64,000 bases of DNA, taken from Candidatus Omnitrophota bacterium (GTDB lineage Bacteria; Omnitrophota; Omnitrophia; Omnitrophales; Aquincolibacteriaceae). The notes beneath the pieces were generated by a model. That model was not told where the DNA came from, made no database searches, and saw only the letters and a list, made by a program, of their open reading frames with translations. The position numbers and the translations under genes were made by a program. Position 1 is the first letter of the stretch. Each line of letters opens with the position of its first letter. Positions 10,696 through 52,853 of the stretch are shown piece after piece. Location: the NCBI GenBank assembly GCA_003140935.1, contig PLLJ01000045.1:2767-66766 (forward strand), in the 5' to 3' direction.

Positions 10696-11591
10696 AGAAA
10701 ATATTCCCCTTTGTAAACGAATTGGGCTTTGCCTTCTAAAAAGACTTGGGTGATCTCATTACCTTTTTGCCGCATCTCGATCCGGAGCTTTTCGCCGCTT
10801 TTTGTCAGAACCTGGACGGGCGATTCGACATAGCCCTTGAGAACGCTTACGACCGCCGAGGCCGTAGTCCCCGTGCCGCAGGCGAGCGTTTCGTTCTCCA
10901 CGCCGCGTTCGTAGGTCCGGACCGTGATCTCTTTCTTGCTTTTCACTTCCACAAAATTCACGTTCGTTCCGAACGGCTGGAAACGCGGGTGGTTCCGGAT
11001 GGCCTTACCGTTCTCAAAGACCCCTGTTTTCCCTAGATCTTCCACGAAGATCACCACGTGCGGCACGCCAGTATCGAGAAAGGCGTAAGGGAAACGGTGC
11101 TTCACCACCTCCAGGACCCCGTTCATCTCAAAAATACGCGGCTTCGCGAGCTGGACCCTGACGCTGTCCCGGGGTCCGACCGCGGCTTCGATCATCCCCG
11201 ACCCGGATTCAAAGGTCATGCGCGAAGAATATTTTAAAACCTCATGGGCATAGAGCGCGATGCAACGGAACCCGTTCCCGCACGCCGCGGCCTCCGACCC
11301 GTCCAGATTAAGGATCCGCATCTTAAAATTCGCCCTCTTGGAATTTTCAAACAGCAGGACCCCGTCCGCTCCCGCACCCTGATGGGGACGGCAAACCTCC
11401 CGGGTAAAGGCGAGCGCGTCTTTCACGACCCCCTGGCGGTTATCCACCACGACGAAATCGTTCCCCGAAGCGACCATTTTGTAGAACGGAATAGAGTTTT
11501 TCATATAAAGGCTTGCCAGTCTTTTGGTTACAAGCTGGTGTATTGTATCAAAAATCCTGGGAACGGGGAAAGGGAAACGCTTTTTTACCAT
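10692..11591 (-). CDS. dapF: diaminopimelate epimerase
   Basis: FYKMVASGNDFVVVDNR, plus the two catalytic Cys contexts ACGNG and ACGTG. The true start is probably the internal MKNSIPF (ATG about 11504), because the upstream 29 codons cover an intergenic repeat. Confidence 0.88.
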   Translation of the reverse strand: MVKKRFPFPVPRIFDTIHQLVTKRLASLYMKNSIPFYKMVASGNDFVVVDNRQGVVKDALAFTREVCRPHQGAGADGVLLFENSKRANFKMRILNLDGSEAAACGNGFRCIALYAHEVLKYSSRMTFESGSGMIEAAVGPRDSVRVQLAKPRIFEMNGVLEVVKHRFPYAFLDTGVPHVVIFVEDLGKTGVFENGKAIRNHPRFQPFGTNVNFVEVKSKKEITVRTYERGVENETLACGTGTTASAVVSVLKGYVESPVQVLTKSGEKLRIEMRQKGNEITQVFLEGKAQFVYKGEYFL

Positions 11592-11691
11592 GGGGACTCG
11601 GGACTTGTGCCTCGGGACTCGTTTAAAGAAGAATTTTCGAGTCCCTAGTCCCGTACTGAATGACGGGTAGAAATTAATGGTTATTCAGTAC
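11592..11691. repeat. intergenic repeat cluster: GGGACTC/GAGTC heptads plus D-like hairpin
   Basis: ggggactcgggacttgtgcctcgggactcg faces cgagtccctagtcccg. Then comes the hairpin gtactgaat-(21 nt)-attcagtac. The aatgagagccag + acgagtc motif at 11716-11747 recurs at 28203-28240. Confidence 0.7.
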
Positions 11692-14446: not shown

Positions 14447-14587
14447 TTTCTCTTTCTCTCTCCGTCCGTTCAATGAAGAAGGGACGAATACTACATCAAA
14501 AAAAAATCCACAGCAAGAAATACCATGGGGAAAACGCGTCGGGGGAAGAGAACGGCGTCCCAATCCTCCGAGACATCTCAAGGGTTG

Positions 14588-14722
14588 ATTGGGACTGTCC
14601 TAATACTTATCAATTTCCGCACAACGGAAATTGGGGCTGTCCAAGTCAGCCATCCTGGAAATAAAACGAAAGACTTGGACTGCACTGAACTTCCATTAGG
14701 TTTTATGGGTTGTTCAGTGCGG
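14588..14722. repeat. composite intergenic hairpin element (modules C-A-D)
   Basis: Module C is caatttccg-cacaa-cggaaattg, flanked by ggactgtcc/ggggctgtcc. Module A is gtccaagtc-(A-rich 24 nt)-gacttggac. Module D is gcactgaac-(21 nt)-gttcagtgc. A near-identical copy lies at 39686-39814. Confidence 0.85.
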
Positions 14723-19891: not shown

Positions 19892-20539
19892 TTATTGTGT
19901 CCCGTGTCCCCGGGATTCTTCCCACCGTTCCATGATCCCGAGCACTTCCCGGTCCGGCACGTCGTACCAATGCCGGTAGACCTGCGCCACAGCGTGAAAA
20001 ACGACCGGCATCTCGAGCACCACGAGTTCGTCAACGGTCCGGGCGATCTCCGTCGCGACGTCTTCACCGGCCACGGGCGCCGCGACCACGATCTTTTTCG
20101 CGCGCTTGTTCCTGCAGAGCAGGATCGCGGCCCGCATCGTCGCCCCCATCGCGATCCCGTCGTCCACCAAGATCACGGTCCTGCCTTTAAGGTCCGGCAA
20201 CGGCTTTCCTTTGCGGAGCGTCTTGACCCTCCGGAGGATCTCGAGCTTCTGCGCTTCCTGGATCGCCTTCGTTTCTTTTTCCGGGACCCGTGAGGCGACG
20301 CGCTCGATCAAAAAAGTACTGCCGTCCTCGGCGATGGCGCCAAACCCCGACTCAGGGTCGTCGGGAAAAGGCAATTTCCGCGAGACCACCATGGAAAAAC
20401 GGGCGCCGAGAGACCGGGCGACGTAATACCCAACCTCCACCCCGCCTCGCGGAATTCCCAGGACCGTCACGCCCTTGTCTTTATATTTCTCAAGCGCCAG
20501 GGCCAGTTGCTCCCCGGCGTCCTTCCTGTCCTCGAACAT
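19892..20539 (-). CDS. phosphoribosyltransferase-family protein
   Basis: I start it at MFEDRKDAGEQLA (ATG 20539). PRPP-binding motif VILVDDGIAMGATM. The last codons (SRGHGTQ) are encoded by the GGGAC repeat motif. Confidence 0.75.
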   Translation of the reverse strand: MFEDRKDAGEQLALALEKYKDKGVTVLGIPRGGVEVGYYVARSLGARFSMVVSRKLPFPDDPESGFGAIAEDGSTFLIERVASRVPEKETKAIQEAQKLEILRRVKTLRKGKPLPDLKGRTVILVDDGIAMGATMRAAILLCRNKRAKKIVVAAPVAGEDVATEIARTVDELVVLEMPVVFHAVAQVYRHWYDVPDREVLGIMERWEESRGHGTQ

Positions 20540-20555
20540 AGATCCGCATTCCTTG

Positions 20556-25083: not shown

Positions 25084-25147
25084 TCTATATCCTATCCGCC
25101 AAATTTCGCGGACGGATCCGTCCACGCCGTGTGGCGGATAGGGTATA
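25084..25147. repeat. module-B hairpin repeat
   Basis: ctatatcctatccgcca pairs with tggcggatagggtatag (17-bp stem, 1 mismatch). The stem encloses the palindrome ggacggatccgtcc. Confidence 0.8.
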
Positions 25148-25169
25148 GGGTTTGTCACTCATTCCGGGG

Positions 25170-25305
25170 TATTGCGCTCGCTTTACGGAATCCCCTCTAC
25201 GTTTTCGATGGAATCCCCGGAGTGCCGGGCCCCGTTCTACTGATCTTGATATTTTATAAGCGCCAGGGCCAGTTGTCGCCCGGTATCTTTTCTGTCCTTG
25301 AACAT
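25170..25305 (-). pseudogene. decayed 5' fragment of a phosphoribosyltransferase paralog
   Basis: The minus strand reads ATG TTC AAG GAC AGA AAA GAT ACC GGG CGA CAA CTG GCC CTG GCG CTT ATA AAA TAT CAA GAT CAG TAG, i.e. MFKDRKDTGRQLALALIKYQDQ*. The intact gene at 20539 reads MFEDRKDAGEQLALALEKYKDKGV. I judge nucleotide identity at about 75-80% by eye over about 65 nt. A frame-broken GIPxxxVE-like trace follows. Confidence 0.55.
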
Positions 25306-25307
25306 AA

Positions 25308-25370
25308 CCCCGAGTCCCGAATCCCGAGTCCCTGTATTATTGTGTCTCGCGTCCCGAGTTGCGAGTCCCC
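25308..25370. repeat. GAGTC/GGGAC heptad motif cluster (family E)
   Basis: cccgagtcccgaatcccgagtccctgtattattgtgtctcgcgtcccgagttgcgagtccccc, immediately 3' of pcm. The core gagtccctgtattattgtgtc recurs at 29448. Confidence 0.7.
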
Positions 25371-25375
25371 CGCTT

Positions 25376-26080
25376 TTATTGCTCCGCTTTCATGGGAACA
25401 AAAATGACGGGGAGCAGGGACTCCCTCTCAAAACCCGTATCCGTTCGTGTAATGCGGACGAGCTCCTGGGAAGAACCTCCCACGGGAATCACCATCCGCC
25501 CTCCGACCTTCAACTGCTCCAGCAATGCTTCCGGGACTTCGGTGGGCGCCGCCGTGACCAGGATCACATCGAACGGCGCATGTTGGGGCCATCCCTGATT
25601 GCCGTCCCCCCATTTGACTTCTACGTTGTTGTATCCGAGCTGTGTCAATTTCTGGGTCGCCGCATCCGCAAGTTCTCTTATGATTTCCACACTATAAACT
25701 TCTTTGGCGAGCTCGCCAAGGATGGCGGCTTGATATCCCGAGCCTGTTCCGATCTCAAGCACGCGGTCCTCCGGTCCGACAAGGCCTTTCTCCGTCATGT
25801 AGGCCACGATATAGGGTTGCGAGATCGTCTGCCCGCGGCCGATCGGGAGAGGCTGGTCCGCGTAAGCCGCGCCGCGAAGAAGCGCCGGAACGAACAAATG
25901 GCGCGGGACCTTCCGCATGGCGTTGAGCGTTCTTTGATCGCGGACGCCGCGCAGGACGATCTGTTCGTCCACCATCTTTTGCCGCGCCGAGACGAACGCG
26001 TTCTCTTCCGCTAAGACCGGTCGCGGCAAAAGCGATGCTGTAAAACAAGCCAGATAAAAGATCTTTGCTGTGCTTATCAT
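25376..26080 (-). CDS. pcm: protein-L-isoaspartate O-methyltransferase
   Basis: VLEIGTGSGYQAAIL SAM motif, TISQPY, and family-typical length. Has a signal/anchor N-terminus. Confidence 0.85.
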   Translation of the reverse strand: MISTAKIFYLACFTASLLPRPVLAEENAFVSARQKMVDEQIVLRGVRDQRTLNAMRKVPRHLFVPALLRGAAYADQPLPIGRGQTISQPYIVAYMTEKGLVGPEDRVLEIGTGSGYQAAILGELAKEVYSVEIIRELADAATQKLTQLGYNNVEVKWGDGNQGWPQHAPFDVILVTAAPTEVPEALLEQLKVGGRMVIPVGGSSQELVRITRTDTGFERESLLPVIFVPMKAEQ

Positions 26081-26169
26081 GACCCCCGCTCCCCCGCGTC
26101 TTTTTCAGGGAAAAATGCGCCGCGTAAAAAAGGGTATCGCCGTACGCGGCGTCCACGCTGTTTGTTTTG

Positions 26170-27036
26170 TTATAGGTTAATGTTCAGAAAGGCCCGCACG
26201 CCGAGCCCGATCAGAAAAGAAAGGCCGGCGACGCCGAGCGAGATCGAGACCATCTCGACGAACCGTTTGCGGAAATCCAGGCCCTTGGCGACCGAGATGT
26301 AGAAGGTAAACGCAAAGATGATCACCACCGCGGTCACGAGCATCACGGCAAGGGAAACGAGGAGCTCTTTCGATAAAAGATAGGGCAGGACCAGCAGGGT
26401 CACGGTCAGGAGATAGGCGATGCCCGTATAGACCGAGGCCTTGACCGGGTCCTTGCCTTCGCTCTCCGAGCGCGTGGAAAGGAATTCCGAAGCCGCCATG
26501 GATAAAGAAGCGGCGATCCCCGTAATGGCGCCGGCCGTCGCCACGAGCTTGGCGCTCCCCAGCGCGAAGGTGAACCCCGCGAGCGCGCCGGTCAGTTCCA
26601 CCAGCGCGTCGTTCAGTCCCAGCACGATCGAACCCACGTACTTCAAACGCTCCTCGTCGATCATCTCCAGGAGCCGGTGTTCATGCCCCTCTTCGTCGGC
26701 GACGATCCCGGAAGCCTCCGCCACGCTGAGACTCATCAACGCGTAGGCCTCCTGGGCGTCCGCCTCCCCGCCCTCCATGAGCTTGAGACCGAACGTGAGG
26801 CCGAGCACGCGCGCGATAAGGAAATATTTCCATACCGTGGCGCGGTCGGGCAAAAGGTCCCGGCCCGTGTGCTTCTTCCAGATCTCATAATGGCGGAGCT
26901 CGTCGGCGGCGATCTTTTCCAGGACCTCTTTATTTTTCGCGCTTTTTTCGATCGAGGCCAGCTTGAGATAGATGAAATGCTCCGTGATCTCGTTTTTCTG
27001 GAAAGCCAGAATTTTTTCCATGACCGTGTGACTCAT
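26170..27036 (-). CDS. VIT1/CCC1-family iron transporter with N-terminal ferritin-like domain
   Basis: N-terminal rubrerythrin/ferritin-like ExxH pairs (ELRHYE, EEGHEH). GLNDALVELTGALAG and C-terminal TM helices. Confidence 0.8.
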   Translation of the reverse strand: MSHTVMEKILAFQKNEITEHFIYLKLASIEKSAKNKEVLEKIAADELRHYEIWKKHTGRDLLPDRATVWKYFLIARVLGLTFGLKLMEGGEADAQEAYALMSLSVAEASGIVADEEGHEHRLLEMIDEERLKYVGSIVLGLNDALVELTGALAGFTFALGSAKLVATAGAITGIAASLSMAASEFLSTRSESEGKDPVKASVYTGIAYLLTVTLLVLPYLLSKELLVSLAVMLVTAVVIIFAFTFYISVAKGLDFRKRFVEMVSISLGVAGLSFLIGLGVRAFLNINL

Positions 27037-27143
27037 CGCGTTCTCCTGTTCCCGGACATCATCCCGCGTTCCTTTTTTGAAAAAATACGCCGCTTAAGCT
27101 GAAACCACGTTCCATTTTAGAGGAAGGATGGAATGAAGTCCTC

Positions 27144-28007
27144 TCAATTTTCACTTCTCAAATATCTCAGCCACTCACTTTCCAGATCTTCGACGCTGCT
27201 GATACGGGTTGAATAAGCAAAACTCAGGGCTTCTTCCAGACTCTTTCCATCGCGCAGTTGCCTGCAAAATTCGGTAAAACTGTCTGCGCCGTAATGGGCT
27301 ATTAAAAATCCCACTAAAGAAACCGCTTCTACGTAAAAGATGTCGACCACCTCTTTGCCGTTTAAGGACAGCAAGGTCCTTTTTCCGTCTTGATCGCGTA
27401 TGGAATGAATGGCCACTCTGTTATTGCCGCTGACTTTGCGGATATCCAGGTTCACCACATCGGCCACGGAAAAGAATCTGCCGTTCTTTAAAAGATACTG
27501 GCTGACAACCTTGACCCGTTCTCTTTTAAGCGGTTCCGCCCACTGGGCGACGCCTTCATCCAACCAAGTGGCCACTTCACCTTTAAAGCCCACGAAATCC
27601 CTGAAAATAAGATGCGCCATTTCGTGCGGCAGGAGCGTATCTAAAAACCCCTCCCCATGGGCATAGCTAATGATCCGCTTGTTCCTGTAATCAGCCATCC
27701 CCTCGGACCAGCCGGGCTGATTTGATACTTTCTGATACGTTTGACGATCAGGATAAATATAGATCTTGACCCGATGTTCCCAGGTCCAGAATGCTGAATA
27801 GCGGGGATATCCCAGATCCGAAGCGATCTGAACATAATAAGCCTCGGCCTTATTCAAAACCTCTTGGGCGAATTCTTTATCCTGGGTGAAATAGACCATG
27901 AAGTGTTCGCCTTCTGCTTCTTGCCAATCCTGGGCAAAACATGCCGTCACACCATTGAAAAAACAAAGAATGATAATTACGCCCCGGGTCAGAGATCGAG
28001 TCATCAT
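27144..28007 (-). CDS. secreted zinc metallopeptidase-like protein (HExxH)
   Basis: I start it at MMTRSLTRGVIIILCFF (ATG 28007). The upstream 48 codons of the track ORF are a translation of repeat modules. HEMAHL motif. Confidence 0.6.
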   Translation of the reverse strand: MMTRSLTRGVIIILCFFNGVTACFAQDWQEAEGEHFMVYFTQDKEFAQEVLNKAEAYYVQIASDLGYPRYSAFWTWEHRVKIYIYPDRQTYQKVSNQPGWSEGMADYRNKRIISYAHGEGFLDTLLPHEMAHLIFRDFVGFKGEVATWLDEGVAQWAEPLKRERVKVVSQYLLKNGRFFSVADVVNLDIRKVSGNNRVAIHSIRDQDGKRTLLSLNGKEVVDIFYVEAVSLVGFLIAHYGADSFTEFCRQLRDGKSLEEALSFAYSTRISSVEDLESEWLRYLRSEN

Positions 28008-28054
28008 AACTTTTCTATCTGCGTGTTCCAAGCCCCTGAAACTATACGGGTCCC

Positions 28055-28182
28055 GCACTGAACAACCCATAAGACCTATTGGAAGTTTAGTGCGCCATGA
28101 TTCTCTTTTTTTAAAAAATAAACGGGTAATCATGACAGTCCAAGTCGCCATTCAAGAAAAAAATGAAGACTTGGGCGGCACT
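28055..28182. repeat. composite intergenic hairpin element (modules D-inverted, F, A)
   Basis: gcactgaac-(21)-gtttagtgc. Then catgatt-(25, A/T-rich)-aatcatg. Then gtccaagtc-(A-rich 21)-gacttgggc. Confidence 0.8.
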
Positions 28183-28202
28183 CGCTTTCGATAAAATATT
28201 TT

Positions 28203-28240
28203 AATGAGAGCCAGTGCCGAGTTACGAGTCCCGAGTCCCC
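28203..28240. repeat. family E motif (aatgagagccag + GAGTC heptads)
   Basis: aatgagagccagtgccgagttacgagtcccgagtcccc, directly 3' of the radical SAM gene stop. Confidence 0.65.
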
Positions 28241-28246
28241 GGAATT

Positions 28247-29383
28247 CTAAAACGTAAGATACGGCCCGGACTTTTTAAGGACCTTCGTCAGTCTGCCAAG
28301 ATCGCCGAGGGACCGGATCCGGGCACCTTCGCTGCGGAAAGCCATGACGCGATCGACCATCACCTGTCCCAAACCCGGGACGCGGAGCATGCGCTGCGGA
28401 TCATCATGATTCAGGTTCACCGGGAAAAACTCCGGATGCGCATGGGCCCACATTTCTTTCGGGTCGATCGTAAGAGAAAGGTTGCCGCCGGGGTCCAGAG
28501 GGATCTCATCCGCTTGAAATCCGTATTTCCGGATAAGCCAATCGGCCTGGTAAAGCCGGTGTTCGCGGACCAGAAGATCCCGGTTGGCGGCCCCCGAGCT
28601 CTCTCCCGGAAGTTCCGGCGCGCCCGCTCCTCTTTGATAAGCGCTGAAGTAGACGCGGGAAAGCCTCAATTGCTTATACAATTTCCAGGAATACCCCAGG
28701 ATCTCCTTGTCCGTTTCCGTAGAGGCCCCCACCACGAACTGGGTGGTCTGCTTGATCCCGGCATACTCCGCTCCTTTCCCGGTCAGTTTGCTGATCAACT
28801 GAATGGGCCGGATAATGTCCCGCAGATAGTTCTTGGTCGTGCTGAGATGTCTGAAATTCGCCTCACCCGCGGTTTCGATATTTAAAGACACGGCCGTCGC
28901 CAATGAAAGACTCTGGCGGATCGCGGTGTCAGACGCTCCGGGAATGACCTTCAGGTGAATGTAACCCCGGAACTGCGACTTGCGCAAATGGAGGGCCACA
29001 CGATTGATACGCTCCATTGTGGTATCCGGGTCCTTTGCGACCGCACTGCTCAAGAAAAGGCCGCTCACCTTCCGCGCGTGATAGTAGGAAAGAAAAGTCC
29101 GGGTCAATTCCTCGGGGCTTAAACTGCATCGCCGGGCGGCCGAACCCGTCCGGAGCGGACAGTATTTACAATTGTTCACGCATTCGTTGGAAAGAAGCGT
29201 CTTGAAGAGGAAGGTCCGCCCGCCATTCGGGAGAATGACCGGATAGATCCATTTGTTTTCCTGGGACCGGCGGCGGTGTTCCTCCGCTCCTGTCGCGCAG
29301 GCGCAAGCTAGGTCATATTGAGCGTCCCGCGCCAGAATGGCGAGCTTTTCTTCCGCATTGGGACTTCTTTGAATGCCGATCAT
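28247..29383 (-). CDS. putative DNA modification/repair radical SAM protein (HhH C-terminus)
   Basis: CVNNCKYC (CxxxCxxC) and a C-terminal helix-hairpin-helix LRVPGLGQVMVDRV. It resembles the family I recall as TIGR03916. Confidence 0.75.
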   Translation of the reverse strand: MIGIQRSPNAEEKLAILARDAQYDLACACATGAEEHRRRSQENKWIYPVILPNGGRTFLFKTLLSNECVNNCKYCPLRTGSAARRCSLSPEELTRTFLSYYHARKVSGLFLSSAVAKDPDTTMERINRVALHLRKSQFRGYIHLKVIPGASDTAIRQSLSLATAVSLNIETAGEANFRHLSTTKNYLRDIIRPIQLISKLTGKGAEYAGIKQTTQFVVGASTETDKEILGYSWKLYKQLRLSRVYFSAYQRGAGAPELPGESSGAANRDLLVREHRLYQADWLIRKYGFQADEIPLDPGGNLSLTIDPKEMWAHAHPEFFPVNLNHDDPQRMLRVPGLGQVMVDRVMAFRSEGARIRSLGDLGRLTKVLKKSGPYLTF

Positions 29384-29413
29384 AGGCCTTCCGTCGCTAT
29401 CCCCTTTTAATGT

Positions 29414-29480
29414 CCTACGAGTCCCTAGTCCCGTCTTTATTTATCCCGAGTCCCTGTATTATTGTGTCCCGTGTCCCAAG
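29414..29480. repeat. family E motif cluster
   Basis: cctacgagtccctagtcccgtctttatttatcccgagtccctgtattattgtgtcccgtgtcccaag. On the minus strand this gives six GGGAC units. Confidence 0.7.
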
Positions 29481-29491
29481 TGCAGCGTCAT

Positions 29492-30184
29492 TCACTGTGG
29501 GGGCGTGAATTGCGAAAGCTCATAGAGATTCAATTCTTTTTCCAATTCCGAAACTTCTTTAACCTTGCCTTCAAACCCGGCCTCACCGAAGAGCTCATGT
29601 TCCTTATCTTCAAATTGATCTCCCATGGCTTCATATTCTTTTTCAGAAATAAGCCCGCGTAAAGCAGGGAATAAAACCGTGTCTTCCCGCGCGGCGTGAG
29701 GACGGTACATTCTGATGAAGGCGCGCAAAAGACCGGCTAAAGCCTTGGGGTCCTCTTGGCCGCCGGGTCGTTGATCCTTCGAAAGCCGCAGAATGGACTG
29801 GGTAAGTTCACGGCCGGCCACGTGCTGCTGCCGCAAAGTCTTTGTCAGGTCCGTAAGCTTCCCCGCTTTCTCAAAGACCGGGAAGATGTGATCTTCTTCC
29901 AGTTTCTCATGATAGCCTTCGATGAATTCACGGATCATAGTGGCGGATCTGAACAGAACTTCGTACTGAGGGGTTTTATGGTTCTCTATATCTTTCAGCT
30001 CTTGATCATAGATCAAAAGGATCCTTCTCAGGACGCCGTGCTCACGCATAAGATCTTCAACGGGCGATATGGGAATGGCTGCTAATTTTGAGTCGCTCGA
30101 TTTTTCTTCCGCCGGCGTAATGCCTGGGAATGAAAAGACAACGAGTGCTAAAAAAAAGATCGTCACACAGATCGCTTTTTTCAT
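29492..30184 (-). CDS. secreted hemerythrin-like domain protein
   Basis: I start it at MKKAICVTIFFLALVVFSF (ATG 30184, ATGA overlap with doxX). H/E-rich helical pattern (MREHGVLRR, HHEKLEEDHIF, HAAREDT). Confidence 0.65.
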   Translation of the reverse strand: MKKAICVTIFFLALVVFSFPGITPAEEKSSDSKLAAIPISPVEDLMREHGVLRRILLIYDQELKDIENHKTPQYEVLFRSATMIREFIEGYHEKLEEDHIFPVFEKAGKLTDLTKTLRQQHVAGRELTQSILRLSKDQRPGGQEDPKALAGLLRAFIRMYRPHAAREDTVLFPALRGLISEKEYEAMGDQFEDKEHELFGEAGFEGKVKEVSELEKELNLYELSQFTPPQ

Positions 30185-30702
30185 ACTGCGCCTCCATCTT
30201 TTGGAGCTAATTTTGCGTCTAGGGACCAAGCTCCGGCACCGGCGATGATCAAAAAAAGCAAGCCGAGCACCATCGAACAATCGGTGCGCGCCTCACTGGC
30301 CATAGCCCAGAAACCATAGCGTGGCGCTTGAGCGACATGAAACAACCAAAAATCATGACCCAGCAGAATAGGAATTTTGGTAGAAATGATCGCCACAGAG
30401 ATATTGATCAACAGAGGAATGGCAGCCAATCGCGTACATAGCCCCAAAAGAATAAGCGTGCCAAAAATAATTTCCACACCGCCGACAAAAGGGGCCATGA
30501 TTTCGGGATTTGGAATCCCGATCCTGATAAAACGGCCTACGCCAAGCAGATCAGAAAAGAGGAATTTTTGAATGCCTTCGGAAAGAAATATCCCGCCAAC
30601 CATAAGTCTTATAAAAATGGTCGCCTTAGGAGCTACGGTATGAAACAGGACGGTAGAGAGTAGGTTTAAAATCCTATGGATCATATTTTGTAGCGTATAC
30701 AT
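30181..30702 (-). CDS. DoxX-family membrane protein
   Basis: Four TM helices. RLMVGGIFLSEGIQKF is typical of DoxX. Confidence 0.7.
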   Translation of the reverse strand: MYTLQNMIHRILNLLSTVLFHTVAPKATIFIRLMVGGIFLSEGIQKFLFSDLLGVGRFIRIGIPNPEIMAPFVGGVEIIFGTLILLGLCTRLAAIPLLINISVAIISTKIPILLGHDFWLFHVAQAPRYGFWAMASEARTDCSMVLGLLFLIIAGAGAWSLDAKLAPKDGGAV

Positions 30703-31011
30703 TTTTTTTATCCGGTCAATCGGCTCATCTATCTTTTTTCTGACTTTTTTCCTCTCCTCAACCAGGACAATGCCATGATTGATTTAAAAATAAAAAAGGC
30801 GCTACCGCTGTTATGAAGTTATCGACAATAGTAACGCCTCTATTGATAAAAACTCCCCCGCCTGCGATTAAACCGAATGTCGCTTTTGAGGGTAAATGCG
30901 GCATCGCATCCAAGGAATGGCTATTTCTGACGCGGATCGGACAAGATTGTCAAAATCTTGCCGAAGCCGCCCTGGTTTTACATTATTCAAATCAATCGGA
31001 AAACTAGGGCT

Positions 31012-31052
31012 GCACTAATTTTCTTTTAAAAAAATTTATCGAAAATCAGTGC
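31012..31052. repeat. module-G hairpin
   Basis: gcactaatttt-(A/T loop)-aaaatcagtgc. The same module occurs at 52681-52721. Confidence 0.6.
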
Positions 31053-31148
31053 GTACCAAAGCATTGGGCTTTGATGCATTCAACCGGTCCCCGGGGTGCC
31101 AGCTTGTCCGCCTCTGGCGGAGTACTGTTCTATTCCGCTTCCGGTTGC

Positions 31149-31215
31149 CATATATCATATCCGCCAAATTTCACGGACGAATCCGTCCACGCTGTGTGGC
31201 GGATATGATATACGG
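31149..31215. repeat. module-B hairpin repeat
   Basis: tatatcatatccgcca pairs perfectly with tggcggatatgatata (16 bp). The stem encloses ggacgaatccgtcc. Confidence 0.8.
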
Positions 31216-31297
31216 TCTGTCACCGCCCCGCGTCTTTTGTCCTCGTGCCCCGAGCTACGAGTCCCGAGTCCCGTCTTCATTTGTCCCGATTCCCCGT

Positions 31298-31819
31298 TTA
31301 TATCTTTTTCGATTCCTGTTCCAGGCGCTTCATTTCTTCCAGGCTCGAGTTCTCTTCCCCGGCAATCTGTTGTCGGTTGTCCCCATCTTTATTCGAGTCC
31401 CGAGGAGCGAGTCCCGAGTCCCGCGGTGTTTCGTTCGAGTCCCGAGCTACGAGTCCCGAGTCCCGTGGTTTTTCGTCCGTCGTCTTGGCCTCAGGGGAAG
31501 AAAGTCCTTTTTTTGAGTCCTGTTCCAGGCGCTTCATTTCTTCCAGACTCGGGTTCTTTTCCCCGGTAGTCTGTGGTCGGTTGTCCCCATCTTTATTCGA
31601 GTCTCGAGCTACGAGTCCCGAGTCCCTGTCTTTATTCGAGTCCCGAGGAGCGAGTCCCGAGTCCCGCGGCGTTTCGTCAGCCGCAGCTTTATTCGCTCGC
31701 CGGGCCGCGATCGCCGTCCTCGCCGCCCGGATGCCAAAGATCGCGTGCGCCGGAGGCGCTCCGAGAAGAAACGTCCCCGTCACCAGTCCCGCCATCACGA
31801 TTTTAAAAGTTTTCGACAT
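31298..31819 (-). CDS. membrane-anchored/secreted repeat protein built on GGGACTC heptads
   Basis: ATG 31819 is preceded by GGGGAGGTTGGAG. The anchor is MSKTFKIVMAGLVTGTFLLGAPPAHA. Two repeats of about 68 aa follow (PRDSGL[AV][AP]RDSNKDGDNR...SLEEMKRLEQ[DE]SKK). Coding status is uncertain because the DNA is the intergenic repeat motif. Confidence 0.45.
   Translation of the reverse strand: MSKTFKIVMAGLVTGTFLLGAPPAHAIFGIRAARTAIAARRANKAAADETPRDSGLAPRDSNKDRDSGLVARDSNKDGDNRPQTTGEKNPSLEEMKRLEQDSKKGLSSPEAKTTDEKPRDSGLVARDSNETPRDSGLAPRDSNKDGDNRQQIAGEENSSLEEMKRLEQESKKI
31314..31677. repeat. tandem direct repeat, period about 204 bp, 2 copies
   Basis: The unit tcctgttccaggcgcttcatttcttccag...gtccccatctttattcgagtc...gagtcccgagtcccgcgg begins at 31314 and again at 31518. 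The second copy has an extra insert of about 38 bp. Confidence 0.85.
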
Positions 31820-31887
31820 CTCCAACCTCCCCATGCTGCGTTGTCCACTTAGGAATTTTATTCAACATGCCCTGAGATTAGAACGGC

Positions 31888-31929: not shown

Positions 31930-32250
31930 CTATTGTTCTTCCCTCGACCCATTGATCTCATCGCCCCGCGAATATCGTGCGGTGTCTCCGGCCTTATAAT
32001 ATTTTGTGACGGAAATGACGAATTCTAAAAAGCCCCGCGCTTTGAGCTCATCCTTGATCTTCTCCAAAAGCTCCTGTCCCGGATCTTTCTGGCTCCATAT
32101 AAAAAAAGAGAGCGTATCTTTCCGGACGGTCAAATGGTCCACATTCTCATGGGCCCTTAAGATCTGTTCGAGAGGGTGCACATCCTCCAGACGCAGAAAA
32201 CGCGACGGGAATTTGATCTCAATGATCGTTAAAGTGTTTAAAAGTTTCAT
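31930..32250 (-). CDS. hypothetical protein (106 aa)
   Basis: I start it at MKLLNTLTIIEIKF (ATG 32250). No motif recognised. The TAGAAT of the 32-bp motif lies 7 nt upstream of the ATG, so the mRNA may be leaderless. Confidence 0.4.
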   Translation of the reverse strand: MKLLNTLTIIEIKFPSRFLRLEDVHPLEQILRAHENVDHLTVRKDTLSFFIWSQKDPGQELLEKIKDELKARGFLEFVISVTKYYKAGDTARYSRGDEINGSREEQ

Positions 32251-32254
32251 GCGT

Positions 32255-32286
32255 ACTATTCTACGAAGGAACGGCGAAGAATAAAG
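32255..32286 (-). promoter_or_regulatory. 32-bp promoter-like motif (immediately upstream of 31930-32250)
   Basis: The minus strand reads CTTTATTCTTCGCCGTTCCTTCGTAGAATAGT. It matches 31 of 32 positions of the copy at 31888. Confidence 0.45.
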
Positions 32287-32358
32287 CCTTTTGCGGATTA
32301 AAACAACAAACGGAGAAATCAAACAATGGAGTCATCCCTTCCCTCTTTTGGATGGCTG

Positions 32359-32970
32359 TCATCTTTTTTTCAGAGTAGCTTTGTCTTTATAGCTTGTACA
32401 TCGCACATAAAAATCAAATTGAATTAAAAAAAGAAGTATTGCGAACATAATTGTTAGAAATAAATTTTTCGTTAAACTTAATAATCCTATCGCTAATAAA
32501 GTCCCATTTAAAAAAGCCATTAAAAATACGAGGATCGGGAAATGATGCAAAAAACCTTCAAAATGTTTTGGCTCCTCATCGGTTATCGGCAACTTCAAGT
32601 ATTTTGTCAGATCGTCTTCCAGACTATTATCTGTGAAATACTTGCGAGTAAGGTTTGCGCTTTTTGCATAAAAAATCATCCGCATCCTAAGATTCATTAT
32701 GATCGCAAGGAAAATAACTCCTATAACAACTAAAAAAAGAACTATATAGACAAATGGCACTGGCAGATTATACAAGTCCCAAGTGATGGAGTTTATTTCT
32801 CTTGTTAATGCTAAGAATAAAGAAAGCGGAATCGCAATAACACCAAAATAATATTTAAATAATTGATAAAGAATTGTATATAAATGCTCGTAAAGCTCAT
32901 GCAAAAGCTTGTGCTCCTGCATCATAAATTCAAATTCTTGCTGAGCAGATAGTTGAGGATGTTTTTCCAT
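32359..32970 (-). CDS. 4-TM membrane protein, last gene of the AT-rich island
   Basis: 203 aa. Cytoplasmic N-terminus, then hydrophobic helices FGVIAIPLSLFLAL, VPFVYIVLFLVVIGVIFLAIIM, FPILVFLMAFLNGTLLAIGLLSL and LFLTIMFAILLFLIQF. AT-rich codon usage matches the three upstream genes. Confidence 0.6.
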   Translation of the reverse strand: MEKHPQLSAQQEFEFMMQEHKLLHELYEHLYTILYQLFKYYFGVIAIPLSLFLALTREINSITWDLYNLPVPFVYIVLFLVVIGVIFLAIIMNLRMRMIFYAKSANLTRKYFTDNSLEDDLTKYLKLPITDEEPKHFEGFLHHFPILVFLMAFLNGTLLAIGLLSLTKNLFLTIMFAILLFLIQFDFYVRCTSYKDKATLKKR

Positions 32971-32990
32971 TGCTATCTTTAATGGGGTCG

Positions 32991-34070
32991 TTATTTCCTT
33001 CCCAATCTTTCTAATTCCCGGTTGTATGATTCAAAGCCATGTCTTATGACTATGTTTTGCTCTCGTACTTTTCTTCGAAAAAGTTTAACTTGCCAATCCA
33101 TCCAATTCTGATGAATAAAATAATCCGCAGAAGTCTGCGCGACTCTTGGGTTATAGTTATCGAACGTTTGATTTAAAGGCCGATAACGGCAATCAGCGGT
33201 TTGAACTCCCCATTTTTTACATTCTTTAATTTTTTGCAACATTTCATAAAAATCATGTTCGAAGTTAGATATCATGAACACGTACATCTCTTTTGCTCTG
33301 TATCCGGCTTCGATCAGCATCTCGATTTGTTTTTTTATCATTTGGCGCTGGGAATATCCATGATCCCAAGCGATCCTCGGGTTAAGAAAATGTGCCTGCT
33401 TCAACAATTTCGCCAATTCTGGCGTCAAAAGCCTCCCGTCAATTCCGCACTGACTTTCAGAATAGACCGCTCGCCCATTGCACTTCGCATTCTTCAATTC
33501 ATCCAAAATGTCTTTTATATATGGATTAGCTAAAAGATTATTATCGTAAAAAATTACCCTATTGCTACAAATCTCATCTTTGATACTTTTTTTGGGAATA
33601 AATTCGGGCTCGATTTTCCAAGTTCCGCAGAATTTACATTTTCGCACACATCCTCTTGAAGAATGAACGATCTGATAATCGACATCAACTAAACTGTAAT
33701 CTGGCGCAGATGCTTCCGCCTTTGGATCCACGCCAACAAAAACTTTATCGCATTCAGATTGTTTACAGTGGTCTGGCATGAGTGATGCATAAATGCCACC
33801 GACAGTTATATGGGCCCTGGGATAATTCTTTTTGTAGAATTTCACACTATCCCACACGTATTTGGACCAATAGGTAAATAGAGAGGTAATCTTAATTTCA
33901 TCCGGACAAAACTCTCCAACCAGCTTGTCCCCTCGCACAAGTCGGACTTTATCACCATTTGCTTTGTGGTAACTGGCTAGCTTGAGTAAGCCAACAGGCA
34001 AAAAATCTCGGTGATTTTTGCTTTTTGCTGGAATCGGAAAACCTGGTTCCACTAATAATATTTTAGACAT
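32991..34070 (-). CDS. radical SAM enzyme with N-terminal B12-binding-like domain (class-B-like), AT-rich island
   Basis: SSRGCVRKCKFCGTW contains CxxxCxxC. The N-terminus ILLVEPGFP...FLPVGLLKLASYHKANGDKVRLVRGD follows the Rossmann-like pattern of B12-binding radical SAM proteins. 359 aa. Its ATG overlaps the HD gene stop (ATGTCTAA). Confidence 0.8.
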   Translation of the reverse strand: MSKILLVEPGFPIPAKSKNHRDFLPVGLLKLASYHKANGDKVRLVRGDKLVGEFCPDEIKITSLFTYWSKYVWDSVKFYKKNYPRAHITVGGIYASLMPDHCKQSECDKVFVGVDPKAEASAPDYSLVDVDYQIVHSSRGCVRKCKFCGTWKIEPEFIPKKSIKDEICSNRVIFYDNNLLANPYIKDILDELKNAKCNGRAVYSESQCGIDGRLLTPELAKLLKQAHFLNPRIAWDHGYSQRQMIKKQIEMLIEAGYRAKEMYVFMISNFEHDFYEMLQKIKECKKWGVQTADCRYRPLNQTFDNYNPRVAQTSADYFIHQNWMDWQVKLFRRKVREQNIVIRHGFESYNRELERLGRK

Positions 34071-35583
34071 TTTTATTTAACAAGGTTTCTGGTAATTTCA
34101 ATTTAATGCCATTAAATTTTATATTATTCATAACATCTTTGTACTCGGGGAGTTTTCGAGCTAATTGCTCAGGATTAGCCCATCGGACTTTAACTTCAGC
34201 GTAATTATCTTCAAAACGGAAACCATCAAAAATGGCAAATTCCGCCGTTTCTTCGAAAGAACCGTTTCTTTTCCAATCATGTATGCTATCTAAAAAAATT
34301 AATAATACGGCGAAAGGGAAACGAGAAATATTAATCGGGAAGACTTCATGCTTTCTGAGTTCTTTCCAGATTCTGCTGTCATGTAGCGCAATAGAAGTAA
34401 CCGCTGGTATAACATGGGTAACAATTAACGGCCTATTGGGACGGCTGGTCACGACTTTTGATTCGCGTAAAACTCTCACAAGAAATTGAAAACATCCTGT
34501 TACTCCATGCGATCTATGTTTTATCAAATGTTCTCGTAGTATGTCCTTGATACTAGAATCCTCATCTTCTGACATTTCGGGCGTCCAATTATTAAGGATA
34601 CGTTCGGAACAACAATGTCGAATGAAGGATTGTAATTGTATCGCAGCCTGCAAATAATCACTTTTATCAGCGATCTTTTCCAAACCAATTAGTTCTATAT
34701 CCTCATTGTACCCGTACATTTCGCCAATTAAGTTGCCTGCTTTTTGCGAAGGGTAACCAATATCATGGAATATAGAAGTAATTAACCAGATGTATTCGAT
34801 GGAAAAATCTTTTTCCCGAGGAAAAACATTTTTATAATATTTTTGAAATTCCGCATAGTATTTATCGATTATTACGCATCCCATTAACATAACTTGAAAA
34901 GAATGCAAATAATGCTCACGCGTGCCCTTCAATAAGGGCTCATAATATTTCAGCCTCAAGTAAGGTTCCGAAGAATAATGAAATCTTTTATTATCAAAGA
35001 TTTTCTTTATCGTCAAATCAACTAATTCGTATTCCTCCTCTGAGATATTTTTTGTTTTTCTTAATCGTGAATATTTCGATACAAAATCCTTTAGGATTTG
35101 GCGGTATGAAATATTGTCCAAATCGCCAACGTACGATAAAAGCTTATTTGGAACATGTCCATGCTCAGAAGCCGCCTTCTTTTTTATTAGTTGTTTATAT
35201 TTTTTTCCACTAATTGCTTTGGCTTTAATATCAAGAAGTACGGAAAGCGAAGAATTGCTTAACTGAATTAGCCCAAATCCATTATTGAAACATTCAGAAA
35301 ATATCTGATCATATTCATATTCCGGCGGAATATAATAATAAAATTCAAAATTTTTAATTTGTTTTTTTGCTTTGATGATTTCTTTAGCGCCATTCGCTGG
35401 AAAAGCATTGCTTGTATTTATATCAATTGAAATTAATTTGGACTTATAGCGGTAAAGAAGATCTGGGCTCCACGCAATACCTCTTAAAATCCGATCTCCA
35501 GCCTTTTGGGAAAGTCTTCGCCAGTTGTATTTTTTCACTAAAATTTTATTGAGTTTATCTAGAAAAATTTCTTTTTTTGACAT
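34063..35583 (-). CDS. HD-domain phosphohydrolase with uncharacterised N-terminal domain of about 230 aa, AT-rich island
   Basis: Metal-ligand series H (EHYLHSF), HD (SIFHDIGYP), H (HRSHGVTG) and D (ALHDS / LDSIHDW). 506 aa. Confidence 0.7.
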   Translation of the reverse strand: MSKKEIFLDKLNKILVKKYNWRRLSQKAGDRILRGIAWSPDLLYRYKSKLISIDINTSNAFPANGAKEIIKAKKQIKNFEFYYYIPPEYEYDQIFSECFNNGFGLIQLSNSSLSVLLDIKAKAISGKKYKQLIKKKAASEHGHVPNKLLSYVGDLDNISYRQILKDFVSKYSRLRKTKNISEEEYELVDLTIKKIFDNKRFHYSSEPYLRLKYYEPLLKGTREHYLHSFQVMLMGCVIIDKYYAEFQKYYKNVFPREKDFSIEYIWLITSIFHDIGYPSQKAGNLIGEMYGYNEDIELIGLEKIADKSDYLQAAIQLQSFIRHCCSERILNNWTPEMSEDEDSSIKDILREHLIKHRSHGVTGCFQFLVRVLRESKVVTSRPNRPLIVTHVIPAVTSIALHDSRIWKELRKHEVFPINISRFPFAVLLIFLDSIHDWKRNGSFEETAEFAIFDGFRFEDNYAEVKVRWANPEQLARKLPEYKDVMNNIKFNGIKLKLPETLLNKNV

Positions 35584-35593
35584 ATATTTGGAA

Positions 35594-36592
35594 TTATTTG
35601 TTATTTATCATTTGGTCAATGGTGTCTCGAAGTTTTTTTAAAGAAACCAAGATTCCTTCCTTTCTTTTTTTATCAGTTTCCTTCTTTAAATCAAACTCAG
35701 ATAGCTGTGAATTTAATTTATTAATATTTTTAATTAATGAACGGCTTGTTGTTTTGCTGGTCAAGGTGGGTATTTGTACTTTTTTAGTTAAGTCGTTTTT
35801 CAAGTCTTCGATTGTATACTCGATGTTTTCAATAAATCTTTTTGCTGAAGCAGCAAAAATTTCGATTTTGTCCAACTTCTTGCAAGTCATGATGGCATCG
35901 GGTATCCAAAAGAATGCGCGAGTTGTCCCAAGAAGACCTTTTTCTGCTTTCGCTATAAGCTTCCCTCTAATTTCTTCCCTCGAGTGATCCTTAAAAGTTT
36001 GGGGTATGTTTTTTTCTAACTGTTCAACAAAATTTTGTTCTATCTGCACAAGGTAACTGTCATCCAGCTTATTCTCCATAACTTTTTCTTGCGTTTCTTT
36101 ATTAAACCTCAAAAGCCGCAATCTATCTTCGACCTTTTTTCCGTCCATTTTGGTTATCTTTGCTATTTCGCCAATTAGGTCTTGATCGGTTATCGATTTG
36201 TTTTTTCTTTTTATCAAATCAACATAGAATTTTAGCGCTTGGGCTTGCGCCATCGGCTCCCATTGTTCTCTCAGCATGTGAATTTGAAACATTCGTTTTA
36301 AGCCTTCCCCTTGGGCTTTGGCTTTTTTAATGGCCAACACATGGATGGGCACGCCTTCTCGTTTAACTTTTTGAGCAGCTTTAAGCCGTCTTTCGCCATC
36401 GAGCAAAATATATTTTTTGCCTTTTTTGCTATCGTTTTTAAAAACGATCAAAGGCACCATGACTCCAAATTGCCGAATGGATTCCTCTAGTGCTATGAAA
36501 TCCTTATCCTCATAATCCTGGCCTCTGGGATTATCTGGATTGAAAGCTATATCATTAGGAGAAACATACCTGATCTGCTCGTTTTTATTCAT
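35594..36592 (-). CDS. ParB/Srx N-terminal-domain protein, first gene of the AT-rich island
   Basis: VSPNDIAFNPDNPR ... VPLIVF ... YILLDGERRLKAAQ (the ParB box II GERR arginine motif), followed by a helical, K/E-rich C-terminal half. ATG 36592 is preceded by GGAGG at a 6-nt spacing. Confidence 0.75.
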   Translation of the reverse strand: MNKNEQIRYVSPNDIAFNPDNPRGQDYEDKDFIALEESIRQFGVMVPLIVFKNDSKKGKKYILLDGERRLKAAQKVKREGVPIHVLAIKKAKAQGEGLKRMFQIHMLREQWEPMAQAQALKFYVDLIKRKNKSITDQDLIGEIAKITKMDGKKVEDRLRLLRFNKETQEKVMENKLDDSYLVQIEQNFVEQLEKNIPQTFKDHSREEIRGKLIAKAEKGLLGTTRAFFWIPDAIMTCKKLDKIEIFAASAKRFIENIEYTIEDLKNDLTKKVQIPTLTSKTTSRSLIKNINKLNSQLSEFDLKKETDKKRKEGILVSLKKLRDTIDQMINNK

Positions 36593-36761
36593 TCTATACC
36601 TCCATTTATTCCATAAATCATTTAAGATTTTTTATCTTTGTAGACGGAATCGATCCTACTTTCTTTCGTAAGTCAACGGAACACCGTCTGGGGAAAGACG
36701 TTAACTCCCCAATCTTATAGACGCACTCTTCGTTACAGGCAAGGGGAAAAAAGAAACCGCC

Positions 36762-37251: not shown

Positions 37252-37429
37252 ACTAGTACTGTTCTCCATTTGATTTTCCGCCACAATTCTTCGGACGGAT
37301 CCGTCCTTTGGCGGATAGGGGTTAACAGCACTTGTTCTCAAAAAAAACTTAAAGGTTAACAAGTGCTGTCCAAGTCGCCCTTAATAAAATAAAAACGAAG
37401 ACTTGGGCCGTACTGTGTACCGCATACCC
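37252..37429. repeat. composite intergenic element (module B, 11-bp-stem hairpin, module A)
   Basis: ccgccacaattcttcggacggatccgtcctttggcgg. Then cagcacttgtt-(21)-aacaagtgctg. Then gtccaagtc-(23)-gacttgggc. Both termini match those of 52667-52845 in inverted orientation. Confidence 0.85.
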
Positions 37430-37452
37430 TTAATTTCAAATGTGATGCGGTG

Positions 37453-39685: not shown

Positions 39686-39814
39686 AGACTGTCCTAATAC
39701 TTATCAATTTCCGCGCAACGGAAATTGGGGCTGCCCAAGTCAGCCATTCTGGAAATGAAACAAAAGACTTGGACTGCACTAAACTTCATTTAAGCTTTAT
39801 GGGTTGTTCAGTGC
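39686..39814. repeat. composite intergenic hairpin element (modules C-A-D), second copy
   Basis: Aligns over about 130 bp with 14588-14722 with only scattered substitutions. Confidence 0.85.
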
Positions 39815-39820
39815 GTCCGT

Positions 39821-41433: not shown

Positions 41434-42328
41434 GACCGGGCTCCTCGCGTTGTTGGTCCGCAGTGCCGGAAGGAATTCCCCCGCCCTGCTGCATCGGATT
41501 GCGGAATTCGACCTTCGCCGCTTGGGTCGCGTTCTGGAACACGAAGGTCTCCGGAGGAACAGGTTCATCGATCTTCCAACCGCCGAATTCCACCAGGTAG
41601 CTCGGTTCTCCCGTGTTCTCGAGATAGGTCGCGCATACCAGCCGCGGCAGGTGGTCCTCGGTCCCAATCCAGATCTGCCACTCCACTCCCTGATTCGAAA
41701 ATGCCAGATGGTCGGTCTTGACGTTTCCCGCGCCCGACAAAGGCTGGAAAGTCGACTGGCCGACAAAAACGGCGCTGACCAGTCCTTCGGTCAGAATAGC
41801 GTACGGCTGGTCCCTGAGGATATCGGCATACGGAAAGGACTTCCCTTCTTCCTGGTAGGCTTTTTCGATCATGCTGTCCACCGTGCCGGGCGCCGCCTTC
41901 TCGGCATAAAGATTCTTCTCCGGCGCGTACGCCGTGATCGTCTTGCCGTCGAAATAAAAATCGTACGGGAAAAAATCGCCCCGGGTTTCCACAAAGAGTT
42001 TCCCGGAGCCTTCCTTCACGACCCGCGAGGTCCCGTAAAGGCTGACCCACGCCCCGCTCGGCGACTTGATCGGCTTCATACTTCGGGCTTCAAAACGGAA
42101 CGACTTTGCCTGAGAAAGTTTATCGCTCATGAGCTTAAGCGTATCGAGAGCGCGCGGGTCACGGGACGCCGCGACCGGTTGTGAGGACGCGGGTGCCGCG
42201 ACCGGTTGTGAGGACGCGGGTTGCGGAGCCGTTTTTGCGGGAGCCGCTTCTTCCGCCCATCCGGTACCGGCCGCTGCCACGAACACCGCCAGGCTGAACA
42301 CTCCTACCCAACATTTCTTTGAGAACAT
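41420..42328 (-). CDS. periplasmic LolA-fold-like protein (DUF2092-like)
   Basis: Signal peptide, duplicated PASSQPVAA linker, and beta-rich body. The family assignment is from memory only. Confidence 0.5.
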   Translation of the reverse strand: MFSKKCWVGVFSLAVFVAAAGTGWAEEAAPAKTAPQPASSQPVAAPASSQPVAASRDPRALDTLKLMSDKLSQAKSFRFEARSMKPIKSPSGAWVSLYGTSRVVKEGSGKLFVETRGDFFPYDFYFDGKTITAYAPEKNLYAEKAAPGTVDSMIEKAYQEEGKSFPYADILRDQPYAILTEGLVSAVFVGQSTFQPLSGAGNVKTDHLAFSNQGVEWQIWIGTEDHLPRLVCATYLENTGEPSYLVEFGGWKIDEPVPPETFVFQNATQAAKVEFRNPMQQGGGIPSGTADQQREEPGHEKQ

Positions 42329-51525: not shown

Positions 51526-51572
51526 TTTAGTATGTTTTTCTCCTTAAGGACATTCAAACTATCGAGTTCGGT

Positions 51573-51601
51573 ATTATAGAAATGGCTCTATCCTTTGTCA
51601 A
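51573..51601 (-). promoter_or_regulatory. consensus sigma70-type promoter of the arg-lysA block
   Basis: The minus strand reads TTGACA-aaggatagagccatttc(17 nt)-TATAAT. It lies about 45 nt upstream of the argC ATG, and AAGGAG lies between them. Confidence 0.6.
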
Positions 51602-51614
51602 TTTAAGAAGTTAC

Positions 51615-51697
51615 GCCATGACCCTCTTTGATCAAAAGAACGGGAGGCCATGACAGCCCAAGTCACCCTCATGAAAAAGAAATAAAGGCTTGGGCGC
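51615..51697. repeat. intergenic hairpin modules F and A
   Basis: ccatgaccctc...gggaggccatg aligns with 28096-28134. gcccaagtc-(23, A-rich)-ggcttgggc follows. Confidence 0.7.
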
Positions 51698-51775
51698 AAA
51701 ATGACCATTGGGACCGTCTTTTTCGATGATATGCTCTATCCCCTATTCCCAGAACCACTTACGTGATTTTCTCCA

Positions 51776-51804: not shown

Positions 51805-51837
51805 TGTCCTCGATTTTATTTCTTAACGGGTGACAAG

Positions 51838-51885: not shown

Positions 51886-51894
51886 GTTACGCAC

Positions 51895-52845: not shown

Positions 52846-52853
52846 AGAAAAAA

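Follow-up and report, generated by a model that had tools for sequence, protein, structure and literature searches.

What keeps the arms of a hairpin complementary when their sequences change? The question is raised by a 64-kb window (64,000 nucleotides of contig PLLJ01000045.1, assembly GCA_003140935.1) from a Candidatus Omnitrophota bacterium, whose spacers carry repeated hairpin modules, two of which are termed here module B and module C. Omnitrophota are widespread, mostly uncultivated and very small bacteria, and their genome dynamics have been little described. A sequence-only reading of the window had proposed that compensatory base changes in B and C imply selection on secondary structure, either of RNA or of single-stranded DNA during transposition, and its statements about the two sequences were all correct on recheck. 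Structural selection on C and its partner hairpin is strongly supported by the copies collected here. We consider it likely that B and C are abundant families of short hairpin-forming interspersed repeats in Omnitrophota spacers, that is, non-autonomous mobile DNA of the kind represented by REP (repetitive extragenic palindromes)/BIME (bacterial interspersed mosaic elements), Correia and BOX. On this best reading, the modules are not gene-specific RNA switches, and their stems are under a structural constraint. In the library searched, queries by phylum and repeat terms and by motif sequences revealed no earlier description of these modules.

Covariation in module C and its partner hairpin

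The motif CCAATTTC..GAAATTG occurs four times in the window, at 14611-14634 (-), 39705-39728 (-), 51845-51868 (+) and 59912-59935 (+), where none is expected by chance. The inner stems of these copies are CCG/CGG (two copies), AAC/GTT and ATC/GAT, every one fully paired. In every case module C makes up the 3' half of a larger unit opening with another covarying hairpin, called hairpin 1. The stem of hairpin 1 (9-12 bp) has fixed TCC/GGA feet, and its T-rich loop (22-27 nt) ends in AATGG; the GTCCAAGTC..GACTTGGAC modules of the window are hairpin 1. The window units are as follows.

14597-14682, minus strand: unit C1, with the C core at 14597-14636 (CCCCAATTTC CG..CG GAAATTGATAAGTATTAGGAC) and hairpin 1 at 14638-14682 (GTCCAAGTC/GACTTGGAC)
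39691-39776, minus strand: unit C2, with the C core at 39691-39730 and hairpin 1 at 39732-39776; 92% identical to C1 over 129 nt
51798-51882, plus strand: unit C3, with hairpin 1 at 51800-51840 (ATCCTTGTC/GACAAGGAT) and the C core at 51843-51882, inner stem AAC/GTT
59871-59949, plus strand: unit C4, with the C core at 59910-59949, inner stem ATC/GAT, preceded by a different hairpin at 59871-59907

Copies of C were collected from metagenome contigs using the pattern CCCCAATTYC-N16-ATNRGNATNRGGAC. Its 16 free bases and the flanks were under no pairing demand, so that the inner stem and the upstream hairpin were free to vary. The scan gave at least 120 loci (L-numbers below denote loci) and 133 distinct copies, drawn from metagenomes and from Omnitrophota metagenome-assembled genomes (MAGs), which were aligned as A1. 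C units are present in five labelled Omnitrophota MAGs (L024, L076, L079, L086 and L100). The first of these, a GTDB MAG of Candidatus Omnitrophota, is 86-90% identical to window positions 6.6-14.5 kb over 7.6 kb. Exact-protein matches to the AsmA-like and L13 proteins of the window came solely from the same population, in peat-bog metagenomes, at 99.9% identity. Viral contigs gave zero matches to the B or C patterns.

In A1, 90% of cells were paired, compared with 20-45% when partners were slid, and 494 cells had changed on both sides compared with 201 in shuffles, counts that are inflated by subfamily amplification and correspond to tens, not hundreds, of independent events. The covariation score was 0.42, against 0.18 for shuffles (reached by 0 of 500) and 0.03-0.13 for slid controls. 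Pair 77-83, for example, was AU in 59 copies, GC in 53, UA in 9, GU in 2 and another combination in 10. The three inner pairs of C displayed 10 different Watson-Crick combinations, including AAC/GTT (35 copies), AGA/TCT (20), ATC/GAT (9), CGC/GCG (8) and CAC/GTG (6), and hairpin 1 displayed 23 different 9-bp arms, each perfectly paired. With looser anchors, two lower pairs of the C hairpin were found to covary too (73-87: TA 140, CG 11; 74-86: TA 120, AT 3). The free bases 85-91 are nearly invariant (GAAATTG), which indicates that sequence is conserved in the single-stranded parts and structure in the stems. Fixed in sequence in the hairpin 1 + C unit are CCCC, GAAATTGAT-AAG-N-ATTGGGAC, the feet of the stem (TCC/GGA) and the end of the loop (AATGG). 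Paired changes thus far outnumber unpaired ones in 133 copies, the reverse of the outcome that the sequence-only reading had named as telling against its proposal.

Complementary arms could also be restored without structural selection, by template switching in quasi-palindromes or through gene conversion among copies. Many stems have two perfect arms (64 of 133 copies), and in one copy (L198) both ATTG segments changed to ACTG together, as such a process would produce. On the other hand, a T.T mismatch at columns 17-63 persists in 41 copies and a TC/TC internal loop in 19, and fixed asymmetric 3' bulges are also maintained. Conserved mismatches in large subfamilies argue against templated correction, which would erase them, and we regard this explanation as improbable.

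A further proposal had been that the 5' segment of C pairs either with a proximal or with a distal partner, giving two mutually exclusive folds. This was not borne out: covariation backs the proximal hairpin only, and the minimum-energy fold contains that hairpin and the CCC/GGG closing helix simultaneously, with a 9-nt 3' bulge. The competing ATTG segments show no informative variation.

Module B and its probable host palindromes

Four copies of module B are found in the window, the last two being additions to the earlier list.

25085-25148, unstranded: copy 1, with the core T-CCGCC-AAATTTCGC-GGACGGATCCGTCC-ACGCCGTGT-GGCGG-A within a 10-bp outer stem TATATCCTAT/ATAGGGTATA; repeated unit 25086-25158
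31148-31215, unstranded: copy 2, in which outer-stem pair 4 is A-T, not C-G; repeated unit 31151-31223
37277-37315, minus strand: copy 3, a 39-nt TCCGCC..GGCGGA element in the loop of a host hairpin ACTGTTCTCCATTTGATTTT|AGGGGTTAACAG at 37258-37329
52780-52818, plus strand: copy 4, a 39-nt B in the same host hairpin as copy 3, at 52766-52837

Copies 1 and 2 are 89% identical over their 73-nt repeated units (8 of 73 positions differ). With pairs numbered outward starting at CCGCC/GGCGG, copy 1 has C-G and copy 2 A-T at pair 4; at pair 6, copy 1 has T.G and copy 2 T-A. By a rough estimate, the chance expectation of a double compensatory change in B is ~0.07, and the single compensation hints at structural selection rather than proving it. 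As single-stranded DNA, both copies fold with -20.5 kcal/mol (z = -5.2 and -7.0).

When GTDB genomes were scanned with a B pattern, the loci found in MAGs titled Candidatus Omnitrophota or Omnitrophica, belonging to at least 10 species, formed a coherent set; chance matches in high-GC Actinobacteria were also obtained. The alignment of B (A2) comprised 42 pattern copies, including 31 from Omnitrophota-type MAGs. The consensus of the element is T-CCGCC-RRA-GGACGGATCCGTCC-(TYY or RAMGCNNTGT)-GGCGG-A, a palindrome of 30-44 nt with GGACG-GATC-CGTCC inside the CCGCC/GGCGG arms and perfect 7-bp termini (TCCGCCA/TGGCGGA). Arms and core are invariant across the 31 Omnitrophota-type copies, and stems that are invariant family-wide are uninformative on structural selection. 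No general outer stem was detected in A2 beyond the T..A pair (covariation 0.146, against 0.123 in shuffles, with 18 of 500 shuffles reaching it); over the next 12 flanking positions, Watson-Crick pairing averaged 4.4 against 3.7.

The proposal that covariation implies structural selection therefore holds for C and hairpin 1 and is not established for B. It is in B that chance, or the shared ancestry of a few copies, could account for the compensatory changes, since one pair in two copies is compensated and family covariation is not significant. For C and hairpin 1 the same explanation is already refuted by the shuffles and the slid controls, and taken over both modules we hold it to be very improbable.

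The host hairpin of copies 3 and 4 (ACTGTTCTCCATTTGATTTT|AGGGGTTAACAGT) occurs uninterrupted in seven other loci (L135, L167, L201, L202, L215, L219 and L238), and copy 4 belongs to a mosaic of ~200 nt, the inverted counterpart of 37253-37450. Judged by analogy, copies 1 and 2 probably arose in a comparable way: their outer stem (TATATCCTA|TAGGGTATA) would be a host palindrome that received a B insertion. An uninterrupted copy of this outer palindrome was not found.

Several other observations concern the surroundings of B. In L076 (1622-1686) and L100 (6848-6912), B is bracketed by a 9-nt direct repeat, AAGA(A/T)CCAA, whose variable base differs between the two genomes and is identical in both repeat copies within each. 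Near copy 2, a signal-peptide protein with PRDSGL..RDSNKD repeats (31298-31834, minus strand) is encoded by a 15-mer, CGGGACTCGGGACTCG, which also occurs non-coding in spacers (25306-25369, 28213-28239, 29443-29481, 31246-31272 and 11590-11650) and adjoins module B in the Omnitrophota MAGs L019, L026, L075 and L102. Between copy 1 and the PCMT gene lies a 22-codon N-terminal phosphoribosyltransferase fragment (25244-25306), 81% identical to 20478-20540.

Insertion, orientation and flanking bases

Many pairs of syntenic loci, 75-90% identical, emerged when all loci were compared with one another. In these pairs, clean filled and empty sites differed by inserts of 87, 84, 84, 80, 84 and 84 nt, which are exactly hairpin 1 + C, and other clean inserts of 75-77 nt were pairs of other hairpins. 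One TA site is empty in L210, and is occupied by a C unit in L185 and by a two-hairpin unit in L141. In L024 a unit stands directly before an ATG, where the orthologous site of the window (~11500) is empty; the rest of this spacer holds different modules in each genome. At the 59910 site, other assemblies of the same population (L001, L002) contain three tandem 83-nt units, compared with one in the window. Units of hairpin 1 + C are arranged head to tail, and modules insert into one another's loops, as B does in a host hairpin that is uninterrupted elsewhere. Filled and empty alleles with discrete boundaries at orthologous sites are the pattern that marks mobile repeats. Unit sizes are likewise discrete: 30-44 nt for the B palindrome, 80-87 nt for hairpin 1 + C and 75-77 nt for the two-hairpin units. 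The discrete units, their presence or absence at orthologous sites, nesting, tandem expansion and occurrence in both orientations together lead to the mobile-DNA reading.

Further hairpin modules of the window are as follows.

28138-28176, plus strand: solo hairpin-1-type module GTCCAAGTC..GACTTGGGC with an A/T-rich loop; further copies at 37368-37408, 51656-51695 and 52723-52762
14682-14720, unstranded: hairpin module GCACTGAAC..GTTCAGTGC; further copies at 28055-28093 and 39776-39815
37416-37450 and 52647-52681: module type TACCGCAT..ATGCGGT
37325-37369, 11653-11691 and 14557-14595: other module types

For the mode of mobilisation we infer that a protein would recognise the folded single strand, together with the fixed motifs, during copying or insertion. 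Variants that lose pairing would then stop spreading, and the surviving subfamilies would display compensated stems. Single-stranded DNA is the substrate that we favour, and RNA may serve instead.

The modules could instead be ordinary MITEs (miniature transposable elements with inverted repeats), moved in trans by a DDE transposase of the IS630/Tc1-like or IS5-like type that duplicates TA-containing targets, their hairpins being inverted repeats. This would fit the junction repeats (TA, CTAA, ATAA, TATA), the TA found on both sides of 41 of 133 units, and the perfect 7-bp termini of B. We nevertheless think it rather unlikely. No DDE transposase was seen, the unit termini share only TCC/GGA, and the covarying stems are internal and include at least 23 unrelated sequences, which sequence-specific binding of terminal repeats does not predict. 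Moreover, the flanking dinucleotide is not only TA but also CG, AG, TG, CA or GG, and covaries with an internal base.

This last feature extends to three bases. The C-N-N to the left of hairpin 1 is the same C-N-N that ends or follows GGGAC, and both are complementary to the three bases between the hairpins (columns 62-64). In A1, pair 18-62 is GC in 63 copies and AU in 58, and pair 62-107 is UA in 64 and CG in 53. In two orthologous pairs (L199/L236 and L150/L239), all three positions changed together. Such three-way covariation could indicate a targeting mechanism. Tentatively, the 84-nt unit may be a guide-directed single-strand element, in which N62-N63-G64 would pair with the left-flank C-N-N and, at the right boundary, with the identical trinucleotide that follows GGGA, and so set the place of cutting and insertion, as in IS200/IS605 ends. 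One guide would serve both sides, unlike in those ends; subfamilies would retarget by covariation, giving the TA, CG, AG, TG, CA and GG types, and the enzyme acting on the unit would be a distant or unrecognised one. The three-strand pairing might alternatively be an RNA switch retained after insertion. We give this pair of ideas a low probability.

Gene context bears on whether the modules are instead cis-acting structured RNA in mRNA leaders and spacers, affecting processing, stability or translation, with C occluding or presenting the region upstream of start codons. C1, C2 and C3 are in the sense orientation and end 11-25 nt before start codons: C1 ends ~20 nt before the ATG of a saccharopine-dehydrogenase-like gene, and C3 lies in the leader of the RNase III gene, whose probable start codon (51898) is 15 nt downstream. 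In L024, L150, L209 and L239 the ATG follows GGGAC by 1 nt, and some copies, those with the coordinated changes in L150/L239 and L199/L236, are kept at orthologous sites before the same gene. Against this, C4 is antisense, and of the units between co-directional genes 29 are sense and 20 are antisense (p = 0.25). Mismatches on the element's strand are more often A.C (91) than G.T, or G.U as RNA (54), turnover is fast between genomes 75-90% identical, and insertions are nested. A search of the whole window with Rfam 15 gave zero matches at the gathering threshold, and one of 51500-52900 at an E-value threshold gave a chance miRNA as its sole match (E = 6.7). The orientation ratio, the excess of A.C mismatches and the lack of Rfam matches argue against a general sense-strand regulatory RNA. 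The data lean away from that role, and as a general explanation cis-acting RNA appears unlikely to us.

Several start codons lie inside or directly after modules. The hairpin GTCCCAATC..GATTGGGAC at 14557-14595 encloses the ATG of the saccharopine-dehydrogenase-like gene, so that a repeat module supplies the gene's start region, and the longest open reading frames called at 27144-28151 and 51763-52644 also extend into modules. At 51798-51900, where the hairpin 1 + C unit forms the RNase III leader, there is a promoter-like TTGACA-17-TATCCT, with the -10 in the 5' arm of hairpin 1.

Other functions considered for the modules were rejected. As a promoter, C would provide a -35 (TTGAAA) and a -10 from the TA after GGGAC, and the sixth-position T is present in 39% of TA-type units and 38% of others. 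By eye, the B bulge has no G.A pairs of a K-turn, no T-run of an intrinsic terminator follows the stems, spacing is irregular and flanks are conserved, unlike in a CRISPR array, and only the WATCAA half of an IHF site is present.

Several results weigh against mobile DNA of the REP or Correia kind, the reading that we prefer. The 64-kb window yielded no transposase gene of whatever type, and a tblastn search of ~1 Mb of Omnitrophota loci, with RayT and IS608 TnpA query sequences, revealed no Y1 transposase. Junction direct repeats at 12 clean events were 0-5 nt long and often contained TA, the junctions being noisy at 75-90% identity; such irregular repeats fit neither a fixed target-site duplication nor a clean model with none. 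There was no orientation bias of the single-stranded-DNA (HUH) type (29 versus 20, gene direction being a weak proxy for replication strand); the window has 2 plus and 2 minus C units on one replichore, as judged by uniformly negative GC skew. The coordinated three-position changes between orthologs suggest a constraint acting after insertion, which a purely selfish model does not predict. To these are added the inflation of covarying cells by subfamily amplification and two departures from REP architecture described below.

If these modules are mobile, Omnitrophota intergenic DNA would be largely built from a shared grammar of mobile hairpin modules, with module C nearly identical across many environments. 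The modules may be usable as markers of the phylum, and they can account for breaks in assemblies and for gene starts that were called wrongly. The family would form a rich natural data set on the evolution of structure-constrained selfish DNA, and would illustrate that RNA-like covariation can arise from mobile DNA.

Two further features of the window lie apart from the modules. A low-GC island at 32000-36600 (34-38%, against ~55%) encodes a radical-SAM-like protein, an uncharacterised 506-aa protein and a protein with a ParB_N domain; its appearance suggests horizontal acquisition, and a defence role is possible. Within a coding region, at 42168-42221, there is a perfect tandem duplication of 27 nt.

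Comparison with known systems

In anatomy, the nearest known systems are REP/BIME mosaics, Correia elements, BOX elements and miniature IS200/IS605 derivatives. The REP/BIME sequences of Enterobacteria and Pseudomonas, which are mobilised by RAYT (PMC3733652), resemble the present modules in several ways: short extragenic palindromes, hundreds in number, form mosaics of unlike modules, and their stems vary by subfamily with pairing kept. The B core, like a REP, is a 30-44-nt GC-rich palindrome with a 4-nt loop. One end of a REP bears a GTAG or CGTC tag that is unpaired (Di Nocera et al. 2013, PMC3733652). Neither GTAG nor an unpaired CGTC is present here: the ends of B are T-CCGCC..GGCGG-A, and a paired C-N-N-TCC opens the units. 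Most modules here also have 22-27-nt A/T-rich loops or a 9-nt bulge, and units follow one another head to tail, without alternating in orientation. A REP is an imperfect palindrome of 20-40 nt with a GC-rich stem of 8-9 bp and a loop of 4-5 nt; B fits this description, and C and hairpin 1, with a 9-nt bulge or loops of 22-27 nt, do not. The Omnitrophota DNA examined contained no RAYT gene, the examples of RAYT being confined to Verrucomicrobiae and Chloroflexota loci.

In a Verrucomicrobiae MAG (CAWBIP010000002.1), B-like palindromes adjoin the inverted repeats of a Y1-transposase element, and such neighbours connect the family to the REP/RAYT world. In this MAG a RAYT-like Y1 domain (PF01797) lies in frame within methionine synthase MetH and within helicase RecG (L008 2900-3630 and L054 790-1780), with inverted repeats of 39-46 nt on its borders. 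At L054 2815-2880, a B-like palindrome directly adjoins a third copy of this inverted repeat. In a Chloroflexota MAG (L078 1-1060), a stand-alone Y1 gene (237-884, minus strand) has 60-nt-period doublets of two REP hairpins on either side, which is the classic RAYT/REP arrangement.

Correia (NEMIS, of Neisseria), ERIC and YPAL elements are likewise intergenic insertions of ~100 nt at TA that fold into hairpins, occur in both orientations, often adjoin start codons and are polymorphic for presence or absence. Correia elements differ in having 26-bp terminal inverted repeats and a full IHF site, compared with 3-nt shared termini and the WATCAA half-site here. BOX elements of Streptococcus pneumoniae (boxA-boxB(n)-boxC) are also modular, with stable predicted hairpins, a variable tandem number of the internal module and no known dedicated transposase; they differ in sequence and phylum, and the modules here are also found solo and nested.

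IS200/IS605 ends and their miniature derivatives (palindrome-associated transposable elements, PATEs) have two hairpins on one strand, as do the present units. N62-N63-G64-CCC, 5' of the second hairpin, is complementary to the 3'-boundary GGGAC-N-N across a 9-nt linker. This resembles the pairing of guide and cleavage site, and the left flank carries the same trinucleotide. Unlike in IS200/IS605, no TnpA was found, there is no strand bias, one internal segment must serve both ends, and junctions are sometimes duplication-like. DDE-type MITEs differ by their terminal inverted repeats of at least 10-15 bp, which the 7-bp termini of B and the TCC/GGA of hairpin 1 + C do not match. Since the defining tags, the long terminal inverted repeats and the strand bias (the last judged by a weak proxy) of these systems are lacking here, B and C are treated as a new family, not as members of any named one.

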